NCBI GenBank assembly: GCA_035637595.1
Contig: DASPWW010000028.1
Location: 19,522 to 83,521 of the forward strand
Source of the DNA: Solirubrobacterales bacterium
Lineage (GTDB): Bacteria; Actinomycetota; Thermoleophilia; Solirubrobacterales; 70-9
DNA length: 64,000 nt
Direction of reading: 5' to 3'
Below, piece by piece: positions 34,075 through 43,052 of this stretch (position 1 is its first letter; every line of letters starts with the position of its first letter). The translations under genes were made by a program, and so were the position numbers. Below the pieces are notes generated by a model. The model ran no database searches, was not told where the DNA came from, and worked only from the letters and a program-made list of their open reading frames with translations.

Positions 34075-35313
34075 CTAGCCGACGAGCTGGAGGCGCTGCT
34101 CGCCGACGGTGATGCCGCCGGCCTCGGCGGTCTGCACCCGTGCCGTCGTCAGCAGGATCCGGTGGCTGCGCCGCAGCTCCCGCTTGCCGAACCGGGTGAG
34201 CTTCACCTTGACGACCGCGGTCTCGCCCGCGATCACGAGGAACCCGGTGGCCTTGCCGACCTCGCGTCCGTTCCCGAACAGCGCCAGCTCGCCGGCGCAG
34301 GAGTCCACCTCGAGCGCCGGGCACTCGACGCTGACCCTCGCCTTGCCATGACGCACGGACGCGCTCTCCACGGCCACCAGGGCGCCCCTTCGCTCGCAGT
34401 TGGGCTCGACGACGTCCAGCGGGTCGGCGAGGACCGTGTCCGTGCCCATGCCGCAGTCGAGCCGGTCGTGATAGCCGTCCGGTGAGGCGCCGCCGTTGAG
34501 GACGTCGTCGCCCTCCTCGCCCGATAGCTCATCGTTGCCCGCGAGGCCGACGAGCCGGTCGTCTCCGAGGTCGCCGAAGAACTCGTTGGCGCCGGCGTCG
34601 CCGGTCAGCGAGTCGTCGGACTCGGTGCCGAAGACGCGCTCGACCCGCATCAGGTTGTCGCCCTCGCCGGGAGTGCCATCGTTCGGCTGATCGTCGAAGC
34701 TGACCTCGACTCCGGTCAGGTAGCCGCCGTAGTCCACCTCGTCGATGCCCGAGCCCCCGTCGAGACGATCCGCTCCGGTCGCTGCGGGCCCGCTCGTGCC
34801 GTCGAGGAAGTCGTCGCCGGCCCCGCCGTCGTGATCGTCGTCGCCGAGGCTGTCGTCGATGAAGTCGTCGCCGGGCCCGGACCTCACGACGTCGTTGCCG
34901 TCTCCCGGCTCGACCTGGTTTTTGACCTCGAGGTTCTGATTGGTATAGCTGTCGTTTGCCTCCATCAGGTCCACGGCCACGATCCTCACCGGGGCGCCGC
35001 CGGGATCGAACGGGCAGGTGACCGTGGTCGCGTTCGGCGCCGAGCACTCGACTGCCGCGGTGGTAATCCCGCCCGGCCCCGTGTCGGTGATCGTGATCGT
35101 TCCGCCGGCAACCGAGACGTCGATCAGGTCGACGTCGCTCTCGCCGGTGATAACCACCACGCTTCCGAAGCCCGTTATGGAGACGTAGTCGACATCGGTC
35201 GCGGCCGAAGCCGGCGCGGCGCCCAACGCCACGACGAGCCCGGCGGCCGCGGCCAGCGCGAGCGCCAGCCGTCCCGGGCAACGGGCGCTCGCCGCTGTCA
35301 TCCTCGGCCGCAT
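34075..35313 (-). CDS. Secreted calcium-binding repeat (RTX/hemolysin-type GGxGxD) protein, paralog A
   Basis: 412 aa with signal peptide ..ALGAAPASAATD. It has DGGAGDDFLDG, GGSGIDEVD, GDAGANEFFGDLGDDRLVGLAGNDELSGEEGDDVLNGG and LDCGMGTDTV, then a C-terminal Ig-like domain. Confidence 0.8.
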   Translation of the reverse strand: MRPRMTAASARCPGRLALALAAAAGLVVALGAAPASAATDVDYVSITGFGSVVVITGESDVDLIDVSVAGGTITITDTGPGGITTAAVECSAPNATTVTCPFDPGGAPVRIVAVDLMEANDSYTNQNLEVKNQVEPGDGNDVVRSGPGDDFIDDSLGDDDHDGGAGDDFLDGTSGPAATGADRLDGGSGIDEVDYGGYLTGVEVSFDDQPNDGTPGEGDNLMRVERVFGTESDDSLTGDAGANEFFGDLGDDRLVGLAGNDELSGEEGDDVLNGGASPDGYHDRLDCGMGTDTVLADPLDVVEPNCERRGALVAVESASVRHGKARVSVECPALEVDSCAGELALFGNGREVGKATGFLVIAGETAVVKVKLTRFGKRELRRSHRILLTTARVQTAEAGGITVGEQRLQLVG

Positions 35314-35319
35314 CCCGCG

Positions 35320-36510
35320 CTAGCCGATGAGCAGGACGCGGGCCTCGGTGATGCTCGACCCGCCCGGCTCGACCGTCTCGGCCTGAGCGGTCACGAACAG
35401 CGATCCATGGCTGCGGTGAAGCGCCCTGCGTCCCGCGCGCGTGAGCTTGAGCTGTCCGTTGCGCGTCTCGCCGGCGCCGACCTCGAAGCTCCCGTTCTTG
35501 CTCAGGACCGTGCCGTTCGACAGCAGCGACAGCGTCCCGGCGCACGTGGCGCCCTCCTCGGGTGGGCACGACACGAGGACCTTGACCTTACCCCTGCGCC
35601 GCAGCTTGGCCGTCTCGCCGGTGACGCTAGCGCCGCGGCGCTCGCAGCCGACCTCGACGACGTCCTGAGCGTCCGACAGCGCGAGGTCTGCGCCGAGGCC
35701 GCAGTCGAGACGGTCGCGCGCTCCATCGGGCGAGTCGCCGCCGTTCAGCGTGTCGTCACCGTCCTCGCCATCGAGGTCGTCGGGGCCTCCCCGGCCGACG
35801 ATCAGGTCGTCACCGTTGTCTCCGAAGAGCCGGTTGGCGTTGGCGTCGCCGACGAGCACGTCGTCGAACAACGTCCCGTCCACCGACTCGACGCTGATCA
35901 AGTTGTCCGCCTCACCGGCGGGGCCGTCGTTCGGCTGGTCGTCGAGACTGGCGTTGACCGGCGCAAAGGAGTTCCCGAAGAACGCCTCGTCATCTCCCGC
36001 CCCACCGTTCATCTCGTCGTCGCCGGGGTCCCAGTAGAGCTGGTCGGCGCCGGGGCCCGTGTCGAGGACGTCGTTGCCCACGTCCCCCTGGGCGAAGTCG
36101 TCACCCGGACCCGTCTCGAGGACATCGTTGCCCGTGCCCCCAATGGCCTGGGTGATCACGTCGAGGTTCTGGTTGAGGAACCGGTCGTTGTCGCCCTGCA
36201 TAACCGCGGCCAGGAACACGACCGGCCCGGAGCCGGGTGGGTTGAGCGGGCAGGTGACCGTTTGGGGGTCGAGCGTCGCGCACGGTGGCGTGGTGGTCGT
36301 GATGCCGCCGGGCCCCTGGTCGGTGATCGTGATCGTGCCGCCGGCCTCCGAGACGCCGACGGCGTCGACGTCGTTCTCCCCGATGATGACCAGCTGGCTG
36401 AACTGCGGGGAGGTGCCCAGCTGGACCTGTGTCGCGGCGGAGGCGGAGCCGGCGCCCGCCGTGACGACGAGCGCGAAGCTCAATGCAAGTCCTCCCAGGC
36501 CCCGCTTCAT
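35320..36510 (-). CDS. Secreted calcium-binding repeat (RTX-type) protein, paralog B
   Basis: ORF 35320..36558 trimmed to ATG 36510 (MKRGLGGLALSFALVVTAGAGSASAATQ). Same layout as paralog A. Its stop is 6 nt before the paralog A start. Confidence 0.8.
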   Translation of the reverse strand: MKRGLGGLALSFALVVTAGAGSASAATQVQLGTSPQFSQLVIIGENDVDAVGVSEAGGTITITDQGPGGITTTTPPCATLDPQTVTCPLNPPGSGPVVFLAAVMQGDNDRFLNQNLDVITQAIGGTGNDVLETGPGDDFAQGDVGNDVLDTGPGADQLYWDPGDDEMNGGAGDDEAFFGNSFAPVNASLDDQPNDGPAGEADNLISVESVDGTLFDDVLVGDANANRLFGDNGDDLIVGRGGPDDLDGEDGDDTLNGGDSPDGARDRLDCGLGADLALSDAQDVVEVGCERRGASVTGETAKLRRRGKVKVLVSCPPEEGATCAGTLSLLSNGTVLSKNGSFEVGAGETRNGQLKLTRAGRRALHRSHGSLFVTAQAETVEPGGSSITEARVLLIG

Positions 36511-36554
36511 CGGCGGAGAGTATGCACACATGTCGGGGACGGCGCGCCGCTGGC

Positions 36555-37898
36555 TCAACCGGATGCGAGCTGCGCCAGCTCCGACTCGAAGCGCGGGTAG
36601 CTGACCGACACGGAGTCGAAGCCCCGCACCTCGACGCCCTCCCGCGAGGCCAGCCCGGCGACCGCGCCGAGCATCGCCATGCGGTGATCGCCGCGGGTGT
36701 CGAGCGCTCCGCCGCGCAAGCCGCCGGTACCGGTCACGGCGAATCCATCGGGCAGCGCCTCGATCTCGGCGCCGATCCCGCGCAGGCCGTCGACGACGGC
36801 CGCGATCCGGTCCGACTCCTTGTGGCGCAGCTCCTGCGCGCCGGTCACCACCGTGTCACCGTCGGCGAAGCAGCCGAGCAGGGCGACGAGCGGCAGCTCG
36901 TCGATCGCCAGCGGGACCTCGGCGGGCCCGACGCGAGTCGCCGTCAATCCCCCATGGCGGGCGCGAACCGTGCCGCGCGGCTCGTTGCCCGCCGCGGACT
37001 CGTCATCGACCTCCAGCAGCCCGCCCATCCTGTTGGCGATCCCGAGGAACCCGCTGCGCGTGGGGTTCAGGCCCACTTCGTCGATGCGCAGGTCGCTGCC
37101 GTGGACCAGCAGGGCCGCGGCGATGAGGAACGCCGCAGAGGACAGGTCGCCCGGGATCGCGATCGAGCCGAGCTCGATCGACCTTGTCCCACGCACCGTG
37201 ATCCGGCGCCGCTGTGGACTGCGAGCCGTGACGAGCGAGGACACGCTCTCGACCTCCAGCGACGCGCCCGCGGCGCGCAGCATGCGCTCCGTGTGATCGC
37301 GTGTCGGCGCCGGCTCCGTGACCCGCGTCTCGCCGTCGGCGAGCAGGCCGGCGAGCAGGACGCATGACTTGACCTGGGCGCTGGCGATCGGGAGCTCGTA
37401 GGAGATGCCGCTCAGGGCCGCGCCCTCGACGCGCAGCGGCGGCAGGCGCTCGTCGCGGCATTCCAGCCGGGCGCCCATCTCGCGCAACGGCTGCGCCACC
37501 CGGTCGACCGGGCGGCGGCGAATCGACTCGTCGCCGTCGAGGGTCCACGCGCCACGGCCCTGGCCGGCGAGCCACCCCGGCAGGACCCGCAGCAGCGTTC
37601 CGGCGTTGCCGACGTCGATCCCCGAAGCTCCGTCGAAGCGCGCGCCCCGAAGCCCCACCCCGCGAATCTTCAGGTCGAGGCGCCCGGGCCCGGCGACCGC
37701 CTCCTCGATGTCGGCCCCCAGGCCCCCGACCGCCACCAGGGTTGATCGCGTGTCGTGGGAGTCGAGGTAGCTCTCGACGCGGCACTCGCCCTCCCCCATC
37801 GCCGCGACGATCGCGGCGCGGTGCGAGATCGACTTGTCGGGCGGAGGTGTGAGCTCTCCCCGGAGCGGGCCCGAGGGCTCGAACCTGACGGCGCTCAT
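36555..37898 (-). CDS. aroA: 3-phosphoshikimate 1-carboxyvinyltransferase (EPSP synthase)
   Basis: ORF 36555..37985 trimmed to ATG 37898 (ATGA overlap with the tyrA stop). It has PPDKSISHRAAIVAA and other EPSPS blocks. Confidence 0.92.
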   Translation of the reverse strand: MSAVRFEPSGPLRGELTPPPDKSISHRAAIVAAMGEGECRVESYLDSHDTRSTLVAVGGLGADIEEAVAGPGRLDLKIRGVGLRGARFDGASGIDVGNAGTLLRVLPGWLAGQGRGAWTLDGDESIRRRPVDRVAQPLREMGARLECRDERLPPLRVEGAALSGISYELPIASAQVKSCVLLAGLLADGETRVTEPAPTRDHTERMLRAAGASLEVESVSSLVTARSPQRRRITVRGTRSIELGSIAIPGDLSSAAFLIAAALLVHGSDLRIDEVGLNPTRSGFLGIANRMGGLLEVDDESAAGNEPRGTVRARHGGLTATRVGPAEVPLAIDELPLVALLGCFADGDTVVTGAQELRHKESDRIAAVVDGLRGIGAEIEALPDGFAVTGTGGLRGGALDTRGDHRMAMLGAVAGLASREGVEVRGFDSVSVSYPRFESELAQLASG

Positions 37899-38989
37899 TC
37901 GCCGCGAGGTACGGCGGAGACCGAGTGACCGAGCCGGCCCACTATCTCTGAGGCGCGCTCCGCCTCCTCGGCCCCGGCGATCCACAGCGTGATCGCGCCC
38001 GAGTGCATGTCGGCCGCGGGGTCGAGCGCCATGTCCTCGATGTTGACGCCCGCCTCCCCGAGGGCGAGGGCGATCTCCGCGACGGTGCCGGGCCGGTTGT
38101 CGACGACGACCCGCAACTCGTGCAGCGGCCCCCCGACGCCCTCGCCCTCGAGCAGCGCCCGCCGGTCCTCGAGCGCCCGGTGGTGCCAGGCGGCGACCGC
38201 CTCCGTGTCGCCGCCGCGCATCAGCTCGGCGACGGCGCGCAGCCGGTCGACCACTGCGTCTATCTCCCGCGCCACGGCATCCCTGTTGGCCGCGAAGATG
38301 TCGCCCCAGATCGCGGGATTGGCGCCCGCGACCCGCGTCGAGTCACGGAAGCTGCGACCCACCTCCGGCATGCGCTCAGACTCGGCGGCGCTGGCCGCGG
38401 CGGCCTGGGAGGCCAGGACGTTGGCGAGAACGTGCGGCAGGTGGCTGACGGTGGCCATCAGCCGATCGTGCGTCTCGGCGTCGATCGCCTGGGGGCGCGC
38501 CCCGAGCTCGGAGATCGCGCGCTGAAGCCGGTCGTAGAGCAGCCCGCTCGACCGCTCGGTCGGGGTCAGGTACCAGCGCGCGCCCTCGAACAGGTCAGGA
38601 CGTGCGCCCTCCACCCCCGAGGTCTCCGCGCCGGCCAGCGGGTGCCCGCCGATGAAGCGTTCGCCGGCCGCTCCGGCGGCCAGCTCGGCGACGAGCTGGC
38701 GCTTCGTCGAGCCGACGTCGGTGACGACGGCGTCGGGGCCGCTCGCCTCGACGGCCTCGGCGACGAGCGCGGGCAACGCGCCGACCGGCGCGGCGCAGAA
38801 CACGAACTGGGCGCCGGCGACCGCATCGGCCACCGACCCGCACGCGACGTCGAGCGCCTCACGTTCTTGCGCGCGGTCGAGGATCGCCCTGTCGGGGTCG
38901 AACCCGGCGACCTCGGCGCCGAGCCGCCGCCTCGCCGCAAGCCCGATCGAGCCGCCGATCAGACCGACGCCGAGGACGGCGACCTTCAT
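37895..38989 (-). CDS. tyrA: Prephenate dehydrogenase with C-terminal ACT domain
   Basis: ORF 37895..39415 trimmed to ATG 38989 (MKVAVLGVGLIGGSIG Rossmann). It has the PDH core GGHPLAG and an ACT-like tail LRVVVDNRPGTVAEIALALGEAGVNIED. Confidence 0.9.
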   Translation of the reverse strand: MKVAVLGVGLIGGSIGLAARRRLGAEVAGFDPDRAILDRAQEREALDVACGSVADAVAGAQFVFCAAPVGALPALVAEAVEASGPDAVVTDVGSTKRQLVAELAAGAAGERFIGGHPLAGAETSGVEGARPDLFEGARWYLTPTERSSGLLYDRLQRAISELGARPQAIDAETHDRLMATVSHLPHVLANVLASQAAAASAAESERMPEVGRSFRDSTRVAGANPAIWGDIFAANRDAVAREIDAVVDRLRAVAELMRGGDTEAVAAWHHRALEDRRALLEGEGVGGPLHELRVVVDNRPGTVAEIALALGEAGVNIEDMALDPAADMHSGAITLWIAGAEEAERASEIVGRLGHSVSAVPRGE

Positions 38990-38994
38990 TGCGC

Positions 38995-40020
38995 CTAGAC
39001 GCGGCTCAGCTCTTTGCCCGCCAGCTCGGCGACCCGCTGGAGCTGCTCCGCGTACTCGGCAAAGCGCTCCGTCGCGATCGCCTGCGGACCGTCGCAGATC
39101 GCCTCGTCGGGCTCGTTGTGGACCTCGACGATGATCCCGTCGGCCCCCGCCGCGGCCGCGGCGAGCGACATCGGCTGCACCCAGTCGCGCCTCCCGGCGG
39201 CGTGGCTCGGGTCCACGATCACCGGCAGGTGGGTCAGCTCCCGCAGCACAGGGACCGCGAGCAGGTCGAGCGTGAACCTGTACGAGGTCTCGAACGTGCG
39301 TATGCCGCGCTCGCAGAGCATGACGTTCTCGTTGCCCTCCTTGAGCACGTACTCGGCCGCCATCAGCAGCTCCTCGAGCGTCGCCGCGAGCCCGCGCTTG
39401 AGCAGCACGGCGCATTCGGTGCGCCCGGCCTCGGCGAGCAGCGAGTAGTTCTGCATGTTCCGGGCGCCGATCTGGATCACGTCGGCGACCTCGACGACGT
39501 CCTCGACGTCGCGCACGTCCATCAGCTCGGTGACGACGGGCAGGCCGGTCTGCTCCTTGGCCTCCTGGAGCATCGCCAGCCCCTCGCTTCCCAGGCCCTG
39601 GAAGCTGTAGGGGGAGGTGCGCGGCTTGTACGCGCCGCCGCGCAGCATCGCCGCGCCGTTGTCCGCGACGCAGCGCGCGACCTCGAGCGTCTGCTCGCGG
39701 CTCTCGACCGTGCAGGGACCGGCGATCAGGGCGAAATTGTCGCCCCCCACGCGGCGCCCCTCTATCTCGAGCACGCTGCGCTCGCCCTTCTTGAACTGCG
39801 CCGAGGCGAGCTTGTAGGGCTTCAGGATCGGGACCAGGTGATCGACGCCGGCCGCTCCCTCGAGCCCCAGGCCCGCCACGCGGTCGCGGTCGCCGATCGC
39901 CCCGATCACGGTCAGGACGTCGCCCCGCGAGACGTGGGCCGAGCAGCCCACCGACTCGACCCGCTCGACGACCGCATCGATCTGCTCGCCGGTCGCCCCC
40001 TCTTTCATCACGATCATCAT
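38995..40020 (-). CDS. 3-deoxy-7-phosphoheptulonate (DAHP) synthase, type I-beta with N-terminal ferredoxin-like regulatory domain
   Basis: 341 aa. [22 protein letters not shown] (regulatory domain) is followed by [28 protein letters not shown] and IGARNMQN. Confidence 0.92.
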
Positions 40021-40101
40021 TGTGTTGCTGCCTTTCGAAGAACCTTCTCGGAGTCCTTGTTGGGTTTACCTGTACGGGTCTCGGCGTGGGGCCGAGGATC
40101 G

Positions 40102-40160
40102 AGGCGTCCGGCGGAAATCGTTCACGTTCGGCGGCTCAGGCAGCCGCGGGCCGGACGCCT
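40102..40160 (-). promoter_or_regulatory. Attenuator-like RNA element: an 11-nt perfect long-range pairing enclosing a 6-bp hairpin, immediately after the leader ORF
   Basis: RNA AGGCGUCCGGC (40160->40150, starting inside the leader stop codon) is complementary to GCCGGACGCCU (40112->40102). The inner hairpin is GCGGCU-GCCUG-AGCCGC (40147->40131). A further hairpin CUCGGC-CCCAC-GCCGAG lies at 40096->40080. Confidence 0.4.
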
Positions 40161-40227
40161 AGATAAATCGCCAATAACGGTAATAACGCAGGCGGGCAGG
40201 CGGAGCGGGGCCGCGATTGGCGGCCAT
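40159..40227 (-). CDS. Candidate leader peptide MAANRGPAPPARLRYYRYWRFI (22 aa) upstream of DAHP synthase-tyrA-aroA
   Basis: Not in the ORF track because it is too short. ATG at 40227, TAG at 40161-40159. Codons are TAT TAC CGT TAT TGG CGA TTT, so five of the last eight sense codons are aromatic. They use A/T-ending codons unusual for this genome. No clear SD. Confidence 0.45.
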   Translation of the reverse strand: MAANRGPAPPARLRYYRYWRFI

Positions 40228-40292
40228 GCCGGTGTGGTGCGTGCCGAGGCGCGTCACTGATCGAACGTTGTAGCAGGGATCGCTGCCCAGCG

Positions 40293-40309
40293 CAAACCGC
40301 AAATTGCGG
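40293..40309 (-). terminator. Weak terminator-like hairpin right after the 40315..41547 gene
   Basis: CCGCA-AUU-UGCGG followed by UUUG, beginning 6 nt after the TAG stop. Confidence 0.25.
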
Positions 40310-40314
40310 CGGCG

Positions 40315-41547
40315 CTACTTGTGCTTGCGCTTCACGCGCCAGGTCCGCGAGTCGGGCGTCGGATCGACGTTGCCGGAGGCGTCGATCGAAAAGACGCGGA
40401 AGACGTGCTTGCCGATCCCGACGCGGTATCCCTTGGGCGACTCGCACGGCTTGTACGGCACGTCGTCGACGCTGCACATCAGGATCGCCCCCGCGGGCTC
40501 GCTGGTGCCGAACTTGAACTTTGCCAGGTGGTGCTTGGAGCGCTTCTCGGGGCCCTTGAGGATCTTGGTCTCGGGCGGATTGACGTCGGGCGGCGGCGGG
40601 CCGACGACGTACTCGTCGGCGCCGATGTCCACGCCGTAGCCCTGGACGCGGGGCTCGCCGTCTACGTCCTCGCTGCCGACGCCGGACCAATACCCCCCGC
40701 GCTCGATCGTCGGCGACTCCGGACCCTCGTGGAAGTCCCCGGCGGCCGCGTTGACAAAGAGCGGCGGGTCGGTCTGGTTGTAGGCCGTTCCCGGTGCCGT
40801 TGCAAAGCTGTTCGCTCCGACGAGGCTGAGCGTCGCGAAGTTGCTGTGGTCGAGGTCGACGTTGGCGCCCGAGGCCGCGTTGCTGGTCGCCTCGACGTCG
40901 ACCCCCGCACCCTTCGCGATCACGTTGACGGCGCGCAGGTCCGCCAGCCCGCCGCCGGACGCCTCGGCCTCGATGCCCCGCGCCCCGGCGCCCTCGCCAA
41001 TGGCGGTGACGTTGCGCAGGACGGACTGCTCGAACGCTGAGCCGACCGTCATCCCGGCGGCGCTGCCGGCGGTTCCCGTCGACCAGCAGATGCTGTCGCG
41101 CAGCGTCGCGCCGCGCACCTGGCAGGCGAACTGCGAGCTCCCGGTCTGGGCTACCACCTGCTCCGCGATGCCGGCGTCCAGGAAGAGCGCGTCGCCGATT
41201 CCGACGTGGACTATGTGCAGGCGGCGGACAAGCGCACCCGCGCCGGTCACGCTGACGCCCGTCGGCGCCGACGACACGACGAGCGGCGACGGTGCCCCCG
41301 CCTGGCCGTGGACCAGGATCGAGGCGGACACGTCGAGCTGGTCGGTCTCGCCGTAGCTGCCCGGCAGCACCACGACCTCGTCCCCGCCGACGGCCGACTC
41401 GACCGCGACCTGGAGATCGCAGGGCGCGTTGGTTGAGCAGGCGACCCCGGACCCACCGGGCGACGCGTAGCGGACATCGGCGGACGCCGAGGCGGAGGCG
41501 GCGAGCGACACCGTCGCGATCGCCGCGAGGGCGGCCCCTGCCTTCAT
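40315..41547 (-). CDS. Secreted beta-helix-like protein with a divergent copy of the basic Ig-like C-terminal module
   Basis: 410 aa with signal peptide MKAGAALAAIATVSLAASASASA and cap motif PPLFVNAAAGDFHEGPESPTIERG..DIGADEYV. Tail is PPETKILKGPEKRSKHHLAKFKFGTSEP..CSVDD..GKHVFRV..DASGNVDPTP..WRVKRKHK. Confidence 0.85.
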   Translation of the reverse strand: MKAGAALAAIATVSLAASASASADVRYASPGGSGVACSTNAPCDLQVAVESAVGGDEVVVLPGSYGETDQLDVSASILVHGQAGAPSPLVVSSAPTGVSVTGAGALVRRLHIVHVGIGDALFLDAGIAEQVVAQTGSSQFACQVRGATLRDSICWSTGTAGSAAGMTVGSAFEQSVLRNVTAIGEGAGARGIEAEASGGGLADLRAVNVIAKGAGVDVEATSNAASGANVDLDHSNFATLSLVGANSFATAPGTAYNQTDPPLFVNAAAGDFHEGPESPTIERGGYWSGVGSEDVDGEPRVQGYGVDIGADEYVVGPPPPDVNPPETKILKGPEKRSKHHLAKFKFGTSEPAGAILMCSVDDVPYKPCESPKGYRVGIGKHVFRVFSIDASGNVDPTPDSRTWRVKRKHK

Positions 41548-41556
41548 CGGCTCACC

Positions 41557-42648
41557 CTACAGCGCCTCGCGCAGGGCCTCGACGAACCTCTCGTTCTCAT
41601 TCCTGGTGCCGTGGGTGACCCGGATGTGGCCCGGGCCCCCGAGGCCCTCGCCCGGGCGGACGATGACTCCGGACTTTCCAAGCGACTCCACCACCTCGCC
41701 CTCGTCGCGATCGCCGAGCGCGACCCAGGAGAAGTTCGCCTCGGTCTCGGCGGTCGTAAGACCGAGGCCGCCGAGCTCCTCCTCGACCCACAGTCGCTCG
41801 ACGACGGTGCGCTCGATGCGGCGCGTCATGTCGTCCTGGTGGAGGATCGCCTCGGCGGCGGCGGCCTGGGCAAGCGAGTTGACGCTGAACGGCTGGCGAA
41901 CGGCGTCGACCGCGGCGCGGAAGCGCGCCGAGGACAGCGCGTAGCCGACGCGCATCCCCGCGAGGCCGTAAGACTTGCTGAAGGTCCGCAGGCAGACGAG
42001 GTTGGGGTGAGCGCGCAGCAGGTCGAGACTCGCCTCGGGATCGTCGCTGACCTGGAACTCGATGTAGGCCTCGTCGAGGATCACGGTGACGTGATCCGGG
42101 ACGCGGTCGACGAACTCGCCGATCCGCTGAGCCGGCAGGTAGGTGCCGGTCGGGTTGTTGGGGTTGCAGATCAGGACGAGCTGGGTCGCCGCCGTTATCT
42201 CGGTGAGGATGGCATCCAGGTCGTGCACGTAGCCGTCGGCGAGCGGCACTCGGATCTCGCGCGCGCCCGAGAGGGCGGCGAGGTGCGGGTACATCGAGAA
42301 CGCCGGCCACGCGTAGACGAGCTCCGCGCCGGGCTCGCACAGCGCCTCCGCCGCGGCGAGCAGCAGCTCGCACGATCCGTTGCCGACCGCGATCCGGGCC
42401 GGGTCGGCGTCGTAGCGCTCGGCGATCCGGCGCCGCAGCGTGCGTGCATGCTGGTCCGGGTAGCGATTGGCCTCCGCGGCGGCGCGCGCTACCGCCTCGA
42501 CGACCGCCGGGTGCGGTGGCCAGGCCGACTCGTTCGAGGCGAGCTTGATCGCGTTCTTCGCGCCGTAGGCGTGCCTCGCATCGGCCGCCGGCATTCCGGC
42601 GTCGTAGTGCGGCATCCGCGCGAGCTTGTCCGCAAAGGTGACCGTCAT
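41557..42648 (-). CDS. hisC: Histidinol-phosphate / aromatic aminotransferase (class II PLP enzyme)
   Basis: ORF 41557..43035 trimmed to ATG 42648 (MTVTFADKLARMPHY). It has NPNNPTG and the PLP lysine block FSKSYGLAGMRVGY. It sits in an aromatic-pathway context. Confidence 0.88.
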   Translation of the reverse strand: MTVTFADKLARMPHYDAGMPAADARHAYGAKNAIKLASNESAWPPHPAVVEAVARAAAEANRYPDQHARTLRRRIAERYDADPARIAVGNGSCELLLAAAEALCEPGAELVYAWPAFSMYPHLAALSGAREIRVPLADGYVHDLDAILTEITAATQLVLICNPNNPTGTYLPAQRIGEFVDRVPDHVTVILDEAYIEFQVSDDPEASLDLLRAHPNLVCLRTFSKSYGLAGMRVGYALSSARFRAAVDAVRQPFSVNSLAQAAAAEAILHQDDMTRRIERTVVERLWVEEELGGLGLTTAETEANFSWVALGDRDEGEVVESLGKSGVIVRPGEGLGGPGHIRVTHGTRNENERFVEALREAL

Positions 42649-42677
42649 CGGCGCTCTATTGTGGCGGCCGTCTCCGA

Positions 42678-43052
42678 CTACTGCGCGGATTCCAGGTCCG
42701 AGCGCAGAGCCTGGGCCTCGCCGAGATAGGCGTGCGTCGGTTGGTGGGCGTTGTCCGCGTAGTAGTGGACCAGCACCCGGATGACCCGCTGCATCGCTCC
42801 CGGCACGTCGACCTCGGTGGCGCACAGAAGGGGGACCGCGCCGAGTCCCAGGCGCCGCGCCGCGACCGCGGGGAACTCCGCGTCGAGGTCGGGCGTGAGG
42901 GTGAAGATGCAGCTCACCATCGCTCGCCGCTCGAGCTGGTTGCGGCTCATCAGCTCGCCGACGAGCTGCTCCGTCGCCGCGAGGATCGCCGCGGCGTCGT
43001 TGCGATCCACCTGAACCGCTCCCCGAACCGCCCAAAGTCGCTCGTCAGTCAT
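42678..43052 (-). CDS. aroH: Chorismate mutase, AroH class
   Basis: ORF 42678..43415 trimmed to ATG 43052 (MTDERLWAVRGAVQV...). It has FTLTPDLDAEFPAVAAR and IRVLVHYY as in B. subtilis AroH. 8-nt overlap with rluB. Confidence 0.85.
   Translation of the reverse strand: MTDERLWAVRGAVQVDRNDAAAILAATEQLVGELMSRNQLERRAMVSCIFTLTPDLDAEFPAVAARRLGLGAVPLLCATEVDVPGAMQRVIRVLVHYYADNAHQPTHAYLGEAQALRSDLESAQ

Follow-up and report, generated by a model that had tools for sequence, protein, structure and literature searches.

What controls the entry into aromatic amino acid synthesis in the uncultured bacterium whose contig DASPWW010000028.1 (assembly GCA_035637595.1, order Solirubrobacterales) was analyzed here? 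The question is raised by a spacer of 294 nt on the minus strand, lying directly upstream of the gene for 3-deoxy-D-arabino-heptulosonate 7-phosphate (DAHP) synthase, and by an earlier note on this DNA, which had proposed a candidate aromatic amino acid attenuator in the spacer. We analyzed the whole 64,000-nucleotide stretch of the contig, referred to below as the window, together with related loci. Our comparative analysis indicates that a ribosome-mediated aromatic leader (a leader-peptide attenuator) probably controls the operon DAHP synthase–tyrA–aroA; the leader would most likely sense the charging of aromatic tRNAs, mainly tRNA-Tyr. Thus, the sensing half of the proposed attenuator was supported by comparison, while neither a terminator nor a competing output structure was found, and the support for the label "attenuator" extends to the sensor half only.

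The spacer runs from the stop codon TAG of the upstream gene (40317–40315) to the ATG of the DAHP synthase gene (40020). It is unannotated in identical public metagenome contigs, and the source organism is known from metagenome contigs alone. A cmscan search of positions 38000–42000 against Rfam (E <= 10) gave no match overlapping 40020–40314 to any family, with the Trp, Leu/Phe, His, and Thr leaders, T-boxes, and riboswitches among those covered. A full-text literature search found no paper naming both Thermoleophilia and "leader peptide". The following elements were recognized in the spacer:

40159–40257, minus strand: leader open reading frame (ORF) in the preferred reading, from GTG 40257 to TAG 40161–40159, 32 codons, VTRLGTHHTGMAANRGPAPPARLRYYRYWRFI.
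40162–40185, minus strand: aromatic run TAT TAC CGT TAT TGG CGA TTT ATC (Y Y R Y W R F I).
40156–40173, minus strand: invariant block TGG CGA TTT nnn TAG GCG (here nnn is ATC), exact in 54 of 80 genome loci.
40150–40160, minus strand: 5' arm of helix P1, AGGCGUCCGGC, beginning inside the stop codon.
40102–40112, minus strand: 3' arm of helix P1, GCCGGACGCCU, pairing perfectly with the 5' arm.
40131–40147, minus strand: inner hairpin GCGGCU-GCCUG-AGCCGC, enclosed by P1.
40080–40096, minus strand: second hairpin CUCGGC-CCCAC-GCCGAG, present in the minimum-free-energy fold of the whole spacer.
40267–40275, minus strand: TGCTACAAC, an extended -10-like sequence of the form TGnTAcAAn, a conserved motif just upstream of the leader ORF.

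The gap, the minus-strand frame of 22 codons from ATG 40227 to TAG 40161–40159, encoding MAANRGPAPPARLRYYRYWRFI, and its tail Y-Y-R-Y-W-R-F-I were all found at the positions given by the earlier note. Of the eight sense codons before the stop, five specify aromatic residues (TAT, TAC, TAT, TGG, and TTT), as had been counted, with TAC as the middle Tyr codon; they are interleaved with CGT, CGT, and CGA. The A/T-ending codons of this tail had been thought to be rare in the window, and they are: in 33 genes of the window, Arg is written as CGA in 5.7% and as CGT in 5.0% of cases, Phe as TTT in 6.1%, and Tyr as TAT in 10.5%. Aromatic codons as a whole account for 5.7% of codons in the window genes. 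The codon run had also been described as the only AT-rich island of the spacer; positions 40160–40190 are indeed its most AT-rich part, but a second AT-rich part is located at 40258–40272.

Related loci were collected by searching one genome per species with the DAHP synthase protein, which yielded the 80 closest loci, 53–87% identical. Nearly all of them belong to metagenome-assembled genomes of Thermoleophilia/Solirubrobacterales. TGGCGATTTnnnTAGGCG was present exactly once in the upstream region of 54 of the 80 genome loci, always before DAHP synthase, and in these 54 loci it constitutes the last four sense codons and the stop codon of a short ORF. The device was missing where DAHP synthase was less than approximately 65% identical. 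When metagenomes were scanned for these 15 specified bases, 120 matches were returned, about half of them chance matches in unrelated, AT-richer sequence; true leaders were found at ~65 metagenome loci besides the 54 genome loci. The leader-bearing contigs were all GC-rich and of the Thermoleophilia/Solirubrobacterales type; OY970251.1, OY969898.1, and OY969097.1 are examples of complete chromosomes from metagenomes in which the leader is present. The number of matches to the invariant block expected by chance in the window is 0.03. As the proposal of a leader had implied, the short ORF, the aromatic run, and P1 were conserved in the aligned orthologous upstream regions of the 54 genome and ~65 metagenome loci. 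Where enough downstream sequence was available, the gene after a true leader encoded a type I-beta DAHP synthase in 76 cases, an AroG/F/H-like type I-alpha enzyme in 23, and another product in none. Because the leader precedes two classes of DAHP synthase and nothing else, it tracks the shikimate-entry function and not one gene lineage.

The reading frame of the leader was evaluated in 84 non-redundant leaders over the 12 codons before the invariant Trp. Codons for Tyr, Phe, and Trp made up 26.2% of the codons in the ORF frame, versus 4.2% and 1.3% in the other two frames. In the family, the frequency of aromatics is about 3% at codons -28 to -16 and peaks, with 50%, at codons -7 and -6. Tyr is the most abundant of the three, followed by Phe and then Trp, and the enrichment of the leaders over the adjacent DAHP synthase gene is 8-fold for Tyr (15.9% versus 1.9%), 4-fold for Phe, and 11-fold for Trp. 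Between loci, the aromatics change their identity (Y, F, W), their codon (TAC/TAT, TTC/TTT), and their position, and the frame is never left. This comparison establishes, at the level of sequence, that the short leader ORF is under frame-specific selection, and it supports its translation. The dominance of Tyr fits an operon that contains tyrA. Two other readings of the ORF were rejected. A functional small protein was ruled out, with the N-terminal two-thirds of the peptide unconserved and its C-terminus fixed at the nucleotide level. Selection for rare codons among the variable aromatic positions was dismissed as well: TAT accounts for 42% of Tyr codons in the leaders versus 2% in DAHP synthase, which is close to neutral base composition and is not evidence for such selection.

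The second conserved component is helix P1. A perfect 11-bp pairing had been described whose first base lies in the stop codon and which has the hairpin at 40147–40131 inside it; the domain folds in this way, at -33.7 kcal/mol (z = -4.1), and one of 200 dinucleotide shuffles folded as well. Throughout the family, P1 has 9–11 bp, and its first paired base is always the G of UAG. RNAalifold was applied to an unfitted MAFFT alignment (A1) of 69 leaders from both DAHP synthase classes, and the sole consensus structure was a 9-bp helix starting from the G of UAG. In this helix, 98.9% of cells were paired, versus 36–45% with the partner slid by one to three columns, and double-change cells numbered 34 versus 8.7 expected, a value reached by none of 500 shuffles. 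Two pairs of P1 alternate between C-G, U-A, and U-G. Of 39 loci with TCC in the middle of the 5' arm, 35 have GGA or GGG in the 3' arm; of 29 loci with CTC, 28 have GAG or GGG. Compensatory changes in the pairing, which the earlier note had proposed to look for, were thus present as double changes from C-G to U-A that keep P1. The interior of P1 is mostly 30–50 nt long and variable in both sequence and length. A GC-rich hairpin directly past the 5' arm was seen in most rows of A1; its sequence is unconserved. The comparison establishes P1 as a real RNA helix abutting the stop codon, and the frequent U-G pairs together with the variable interior indicate that it acts as RNA of the minus strand and not as a DNA repeat.

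Other identities of the P1 domain were considered and rejected. A DNA operator was ruled out by the variable spacing and the frequent U-G pairs. A metabolite riboswitch was rejected because of the unconserved interior, which makes a ligand-binding core unlikely; only the helix and the GC hairpin recur. Regarding a tRNA-like or T-box element, no ARAGORN match in the window and no Rfam T-box match were found. The second hairpin (40096–40080), which had been counted as part of the leader, is present in the minimum-free-energy fold but is unconserved even in the closest relatives. The stretch from the P1 3' arm to the ATG is unalignable even among relatives with DAHP synthases 82–87% identical, and in L122, L161, L004, and L003 it has a length of 44–49 nt and contains no hairpin; the second hairpin is therefore not part of the conserved device.

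A long-range pairing was observed in a subfamily of loci with the P1 5' arm GGCGCUUCGG (L026, L012, L016, L025, L034, L039, L042, L044, L051, L057, L059, and others). In these loci, the loop CGUGAGC located ~20 nt past the stop codon complements CUCACG ~95–103 nt past the stop codon, with 13 perfect bp in L026, and three loci with the loop GCGAG have the partner CUCGC. This suggests a pseudoknot or an alternative long-range helix in the subfamily, with no equivalent in the clade of the window.

The leader had been taken to start at ATG 40227. This start was not upheld: GTG 40257, in frame and 9 nt past the conserved TGCTACAAC, is the more likely start codon, and ATG 40227 would be an internal Met. 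The family peptides are 21–44 amino acids long, with a median of 30. Sixty-four of the 65 motif-bearing leaders have an ATG or GTG located 7–12 nt past the motif, from which the frame stays open as far as the distant TAG. Counted within 30 nt past the motif, 76 such codons are in frame versus four and six in the two other frames. A Shine–Dalgarno-like 4-mer precedes six of 64 leader starts versus 60 of 65 DAHP synthase starts, and no Shine–Dalgarno sequence was found before the leader ORF of the window. Leaderless or near-leaderless initiation would best explain the missing Shine–Dalgarno sequences; this mode of initiation is common in Actinomycetota (PMC4633059; bioRxiv 10.1101/834739).

The motif upstream of the start is present, as TGnTA(C)AA(A/C/G), in 65 of the 84 non-redundant leaders, and TGNTACAA was found once in the whole 64-kb window. 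We infer that TGCTACAAC acts as a promoter; a scan of the window spacer detected no sigma-70 consensus promoter. One diverged copy of the leader (L052:2933–3232) has the canonical -10-like hexamer TACATT, 10 nt before its ATG, where the others have the motif. The ORF of this copy holds ...Y L R W R F with TGGCGATTT; its TAG is lost, and the frame continues for 10 codons to TGA through a P1-like GUGCUCGGG...CUCGAGCGCC.

The genes downstream of the leader had been named as DAHP synthase, prephenate dehydrogenase, and EPSP synthase, and Pfam confirmed all three assignments:

38995–40020, minus strand: DAHP synthase, type I-beta, with an N-terminal FXD domain whose Pfam alignment begins at residue 1.
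37895–38989, minus strand: prephenate dehydrogenase (tyrA) with an ACT domain, by Pfam.
36555–37898, minus strand: EPSP synthase (aroA), by Pfam.
40036–40031, minus strand: ribosome-binding site (RBS) GAAAGG of DAHP synthase, whose ATG is at 40020–40018; GAAAGG is found in 40 of 56 loci.

Between DAHP synthase and tyrA there is a gap of 6 nt, and tyrA and aroA overlap by 4 nt according to the gene calls on the identical public contigs. We propose 36555–40020 as the regulated operon.

In the mechanism that we infer, including its transcription start, the direction of the switch, and its output step, transcription would begin at or a few nucleotides before GTG 40257, as set by TGCTACAAC, and a ribosome would initiate without a Shine–Dalgarno sequence and translate ~32 codons. 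Under a shortage of Tyr, Phe, or Trp, the ribosome would stall on the aromatic codons located at -13 to -4 from the stop codon, with its leading edge short of the stop codon. The stalled ribosome would leave the 5' arm (40160–40150) free, and P1 would form at once when the 3' arm (40112–40102) is made. When aromatics are plentiful, the ribosome would reach UAG and cover the 5' arm, and the C-rich 3' arm and the interior of P1 would remain unpaired; this unpaired state would last while RNA polymerase crosses the remaining ~80 nt. The geometry of the leader is such that a ribosome at the stop codon covers the 5' arm and a stall at least five codons upstream leaves it free. In most relatives, and barely in the window, a small hairpin at the end of the ORF, H0, would also capture the beginning of the 5' arm after the departure of the ribosome. 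The formed P1 would allow expression, and the unformed P1 would not: as the starved state must be ON physiologically, P1 is taken as the permissive, antiterminator-like conformer.

Several observations weigh against this mechanism, and the first of them concern its output. The leader of the window contains no hairpin followed by a U tract in a terminator scan, which agrees with what had been reported on both this point and the missing Shine–Dalgarno sequence, and 75 of 86 loci have no stretch of 8 nt in the leader with more than four T. A 3:4 terminator partner for the 3' arm of P1 was sought and rejected: none is conserved, and the minimal loci, with 44–49 nt past P1, have no hairpin. We also folded 91 leaders under constraints representing the ribosome-free state, a footprint at codon -6 (stalled), and a footprint at the stop codon (terminating). 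The accessibility of the RBS was the same in the stalled and the terminating states, with a mean difference of 0.02. In 90 loci, duplexes between the ORF tail and the RBS had -15.7 kcal/mol, versus -15.2 for shuffled tails and -15.3 for the RBS of other loci (p = 0.2–0.5). Duplexes between the 3' arm of P1 and the RBS equaled their shuffled controls (-9.9 in both).

The last three results bear equally on a rival explanation, in which the sensor is the same and the output is translational: the position of the ribosome would refold the leader and thereby expose or hide the RBS of DAHP synthase. The leaders of ermC and cat, like the leaderless polycysteine short ORFs of mycobacteria, work by translational attenuation through the position of a ribosome on a short ORF. 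For such an output speak the leaderless-like ORF and the lack of an intrinsic terminator, which are also found in the mycobacterial case (bioRxiv 10.1101/834739), and an RBS accessibility of 0.39 in the ribosome-free state versus 0.49–0.52 with the 3' part of the ORF masked. In L020, L083, and L087, codons at approximately -9 to -6 of the ORF, CUUCUCCUA (Tyr-Phe-Ser-Tyr), perfectly complement UAGGAGAAG at the RBS; this complementarity, however, is not general across the family. In the window, GCUGCCU of the inner hairpin (40144–40138) pairs with AGGCAGC at the RBS (40033–40027) when the 5' arm of P1 is masked, but this match is common to L001 only and may be due to chance. With the accessibility equal in the stalled and the terminating states, and with duplexes of the ORF tail and of the P1 3' arm no better than controls, we regard a translational output as distinctly unlikely.

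Returning to an output at the level of transcription, the ratio of C to G was 1.36 in the ORF, 1.16 in P1, and 1.27 past P1, versus 0.87 in coding sequence. This excess of C over G is weakly compatible with a Rho entry site and is not specific for it. Since neither an intrinsic terminator nor an RBS-sequestering helix is conserved, Rho-type termination is preferred: our best guess is a factor-dependent (Rho-type) or otherwise non-canonical premature termination on the exposed C-rich RNA, with translational control or control of RNA stability as the alternatives. We are far less confident of any single output mechanism than of the sensing half.

A further group of adverse observations concerns the end of the ORF. 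No nucleotide changes occur in the last 15–18 nt, not even at the third positions of CGA and TTT, an invariance that simple codon stalling does not predict. In ~110 loci, CGA, TTT, and TAG are without a single synonymous substitution, with neighboring codons varying freely, and searches in the translated frame revealed no W-R-F-x-stop written in other codons. The lack of synonymous variants indicates that the block is constrained as RNA nucleotides and not only as a peptide. The view of the tail as a run of rare codons can thus be retained in part: the codons are rare, but CGA, TTT, and TAG belong to the nucleotide-invariant block. Moreover, a ribosome stalled at the invariant Phe codon (-2) would already melt part of P1, which is at odds with the proposed direction of the switch.

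The same positions are the basis of an inverted reading, in which P1 would switch the operon OFF, for example as a terminator lacking a U tract or as a signal for polymerase or processing. The critical stall sites would be the invariant UGG-CGA-UUU codons, and a ribosome there or at UAG would melt P1 and permit read-through. The invariant Trp and Phe codons and the rare Arg codon are indeed located where a ribosome would cover the 5' arm of P1, and the minimal loci (44–49 nt from P1 to the ATG) share no structure other than P1. However, the variable aromatics peak at -7/-6, where a stall leaves P1 intact, so that under this reading starvation for Tyr would silence an operon with tyrA in it. 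In addition, no U tract is located past P1 in alignment A1, and the invariance of the nucleotides exceeds the needs of slow decoding. We therefore consider the inverted direction very unlikely and retain P1 as the permissive conformer.

H0, the hairpin at the end of the ORF, was found in most relatives as CGCCUGGC/GCUAGGCG with the loop GAUUUA; its median energy is -10 kcal/mol, and it is stable in 87% of loci. Through an overlap of its 3' arm with the start of the P1 5' arm, H0 is a candidate competitor of P1. H0 also adds to the difficulties, as it is negligible in the window and in L001 (-0.8 kcal/mol) and shows no covariation, its 3' side never varying. For these reasons, H0 was rejected as a universal competitor of P1, and it leaves the invariant loop unexplained. 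A partner for the block in cis was not found either: the complement of the block is CUAGnUAAAUCG, and reverse-complement matches in the window and in all fetched loci were the block itself only.

It is possible, although unlikely, that the block CGAUUUAnCUAGGCG is a dedicated recognition element, through which the leader joins tRNA charging with a second signal, without an intrinsic terminator, in a hybrid attenuator class specific to Thermoleophilia. Such an element could be recognized by a protein acting in trans, by RF1 and the ribosome during termination, or by mRNAs that the released leader RNA targets. A separate rival reading regards CGAUUUAnCUAGGCG and P1 as mainly a recognition site for a partner in trans (an RNA-binding protein, RF1 or the terminating ribosome, or the target mRNAs of a small RNA), with the aromatic codons as part of the signal. 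Fifteen specified bases with zero substitutions in ~110 loci, between flanks saturated with changes, agree with this, and so does the persistence of the block at four loci (L005, L008, L009, and L058) in which CGATTTAGCTAGGCG is kept and TGG is replaced. Furthermore, the AU-rich loop beside a strong helix resembles the seed of a small RNA, and a released leader is known to act as a small RNA in the case of rnTrpL of Sinorhizobium (PMC6614838). Nevertheless, we found no complementary sequence in the window or in the fetched flanks, no conserved neighboring regulator gene, and no Rfam match, and we judge this rival reading to be highly improbable.

The last adverse observations concern transcription of the proposed ribosome-sensed leader. 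The final position of the motif was never T in the 65 loci (A in 36, C in 20, and G in 9, as counts of the hexamer), and a motif without the canonical final T is odd for a -10 box. The motif is also conserved far beyond the level of a generic -10 box, and recognition by sigma-A may not be its only function, or not its function at all. In addition, a hexamer TAnnnT was found 25–35 nt before the ATG of DAHP synthase in 55 of 87 loci, and transcription from it would bypass the leader. It occurs as TAGAGT, TAGGAT, TACGAT, and other forms (for example, in L046, L022, and L007), is often followed by TTCCAGG, is locally enriched ~50-fold, and is also present in L041, a locus without any leader. This hexamer is probably a second promoter, proximal to DAHP synthase, for expression independent of the leader. 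It was missing in the window (40021–40100) and in its closest relatives L001, L003, L004, L122, and L161; the operon of the window thus presumably relies on the leader promoter. The possibility that TAnnnT is an RNA partner of the TGCTACAA motif was discarded: no covariation was visible by eye, and a second promoter is the better reading.

Regarding the neighborhood of the leader, a 410-aa ORF without a Pfam match (40315–41547, minus strand) adjoins it upstream. In most relatives, the upstream neighbor is a class I/II aminotransferase, whose stop codon is located 5–25 nt before the TGCTACAA motif; in the window, such an aminotransferase sits one gene further upstream (41557–43035). The upstream neighbor varies among loci, and no regulator gene is kept beside the leader. 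Directly after aroA lie two ORFs of 412 aa in tandem, which carry RTX calcium-binding nonapeptide repeats (HemolysinCabind; 34075–36558, minus strand).

The type I-alpha enzymes encoded behind the leader (L095, L114, L178, L186, L187, L096, L088, and others; for example, L114, oriented, 857–1100) have a short N-terminal extension MMIGM, MIIGM, or MFIGM. The extension is coded by ATGATGATCGG..., nearly the same nucleotides as in ATGATGATCGTG, which codes for MMIVMK, the start of type I-beta enzymes. A cassette made up of the leader, the RBS, and the first codons may have moved between the two DAHP synthase classes.

Leader-peptide attenuation, although textbook knowledge, has been documented mainly in Proteobacteria and in a few model Actinomycetota. 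The leaders analyzed here represent a sequence-defined family of ~100 loci before a shikimate-entry enzyme in an abundant soil lineage that is experimentally almost unstudied. A device without a terminator and apparently leaderless could help to explain ribosome-sensed attenuation in high-GC bacteria, whose intrinsic terminators are atypical, and the invariant RNA block of 15–18 nt is a concrete anomaly in it. In practice, TGGCGATTTnnnTAGGCG can serve as a search key for the annotation of such leaders and marks aromatic-controlled DAHP synthase operons in metagenomes.

Among known systems, the trpL and pheL attenuators share with this leader a short ORF with cognate codons clustered near its C-terminus and a helix whose 5' arm lies at or just past the stop codon, the position of the ribosome deciding the fate of the helix. 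In most relatives, there is also a small competing hairpin in the end of the ORF, comparable with the 1:2 versus 2:3 logic of these attenuators. The peptide of E. coli trpL ends with W-W-R-T-S-stop, and the leader tail W-R-F-S-stop resembles it. Unlike in trpL and pheL, a 3:4 terminator hairpin with a U tract and a Shine–Dalgarno sequence are lacking, the ORF is probably leaderless, Rfam gives no match (Trp_leader, Leu/Phe leader), the last 15–18 nt are invariant as nucleotides, and the regulated gene is DAHP synthase.

In mgtL-mgtA and mgtP of Salmonella and in tnaC-tnaA of E. coli, the position of a ribosome on the leader ORF exposes C-rich RNA to Rho, with no intrinsic terminator. The leader described here is likewise richer in C than in G, and P1 sequesters a C-rich 3' arm; Rho dependence is only proposed for it. 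TnaC senses free Trp by a peptide-specified arrest at the stop codon; here, in contrast, the constraint at the end of the ORF is on nucleotides.

An aromatic-rich leader before aroF of Corynebacterium glutamicum had been mentioned in the earlier note, and its existence was confirmed in the literature: aroR encodes a Phe-Tyr-Phe leader peptide that controls the aroF DAHP synthase operon via ribosome stalling (PMC4046766; PMC11802643, citing Neshat et al. 2014). According to PMC11802643, aroR responds to Phe and not to Tyr and has only three regulatory codons. Both leaders belong to the phylum Actinomycetota and place aromatic codons before DAHP synthase. C. glutamicum is of another class, and the leaders analyzed here, unlike aroR, are dominated by Tyr, with three to seven aromatic codons in addition to the invariant W and F. 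Regulation by aroR is described as transcription attenuation, whereas no terminator is seen in the present leader.

The leaderless polycysteine short ORFs of mycobacteria are attenuators that also lack terminators (Canestrari et al., bioRxiv 10.1101/834739). They share with our leader the phylum, an unannotated short ORF as the first cistron, which is probably leaderless here too, the sensing of an amino acid by pausing, as proposed here, and the lack of an intrinsic terminator. In mycobacteria, the stalled ribosome blocks a duplex that sequesters the RBS; here, no complementarity of the ORF or of P1 to the RBS exceeded that of shuffles, and the conserved helix is local to the stop codon. The trpL and pheL attenuators are thus the closest kind of system, aroR-aroF of C. 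glutamicum is the closest functional precedent, and the mycobacterial polycysteine short ORFs are the closest architectural precedent of the proposed Solirubrobacterales leader.

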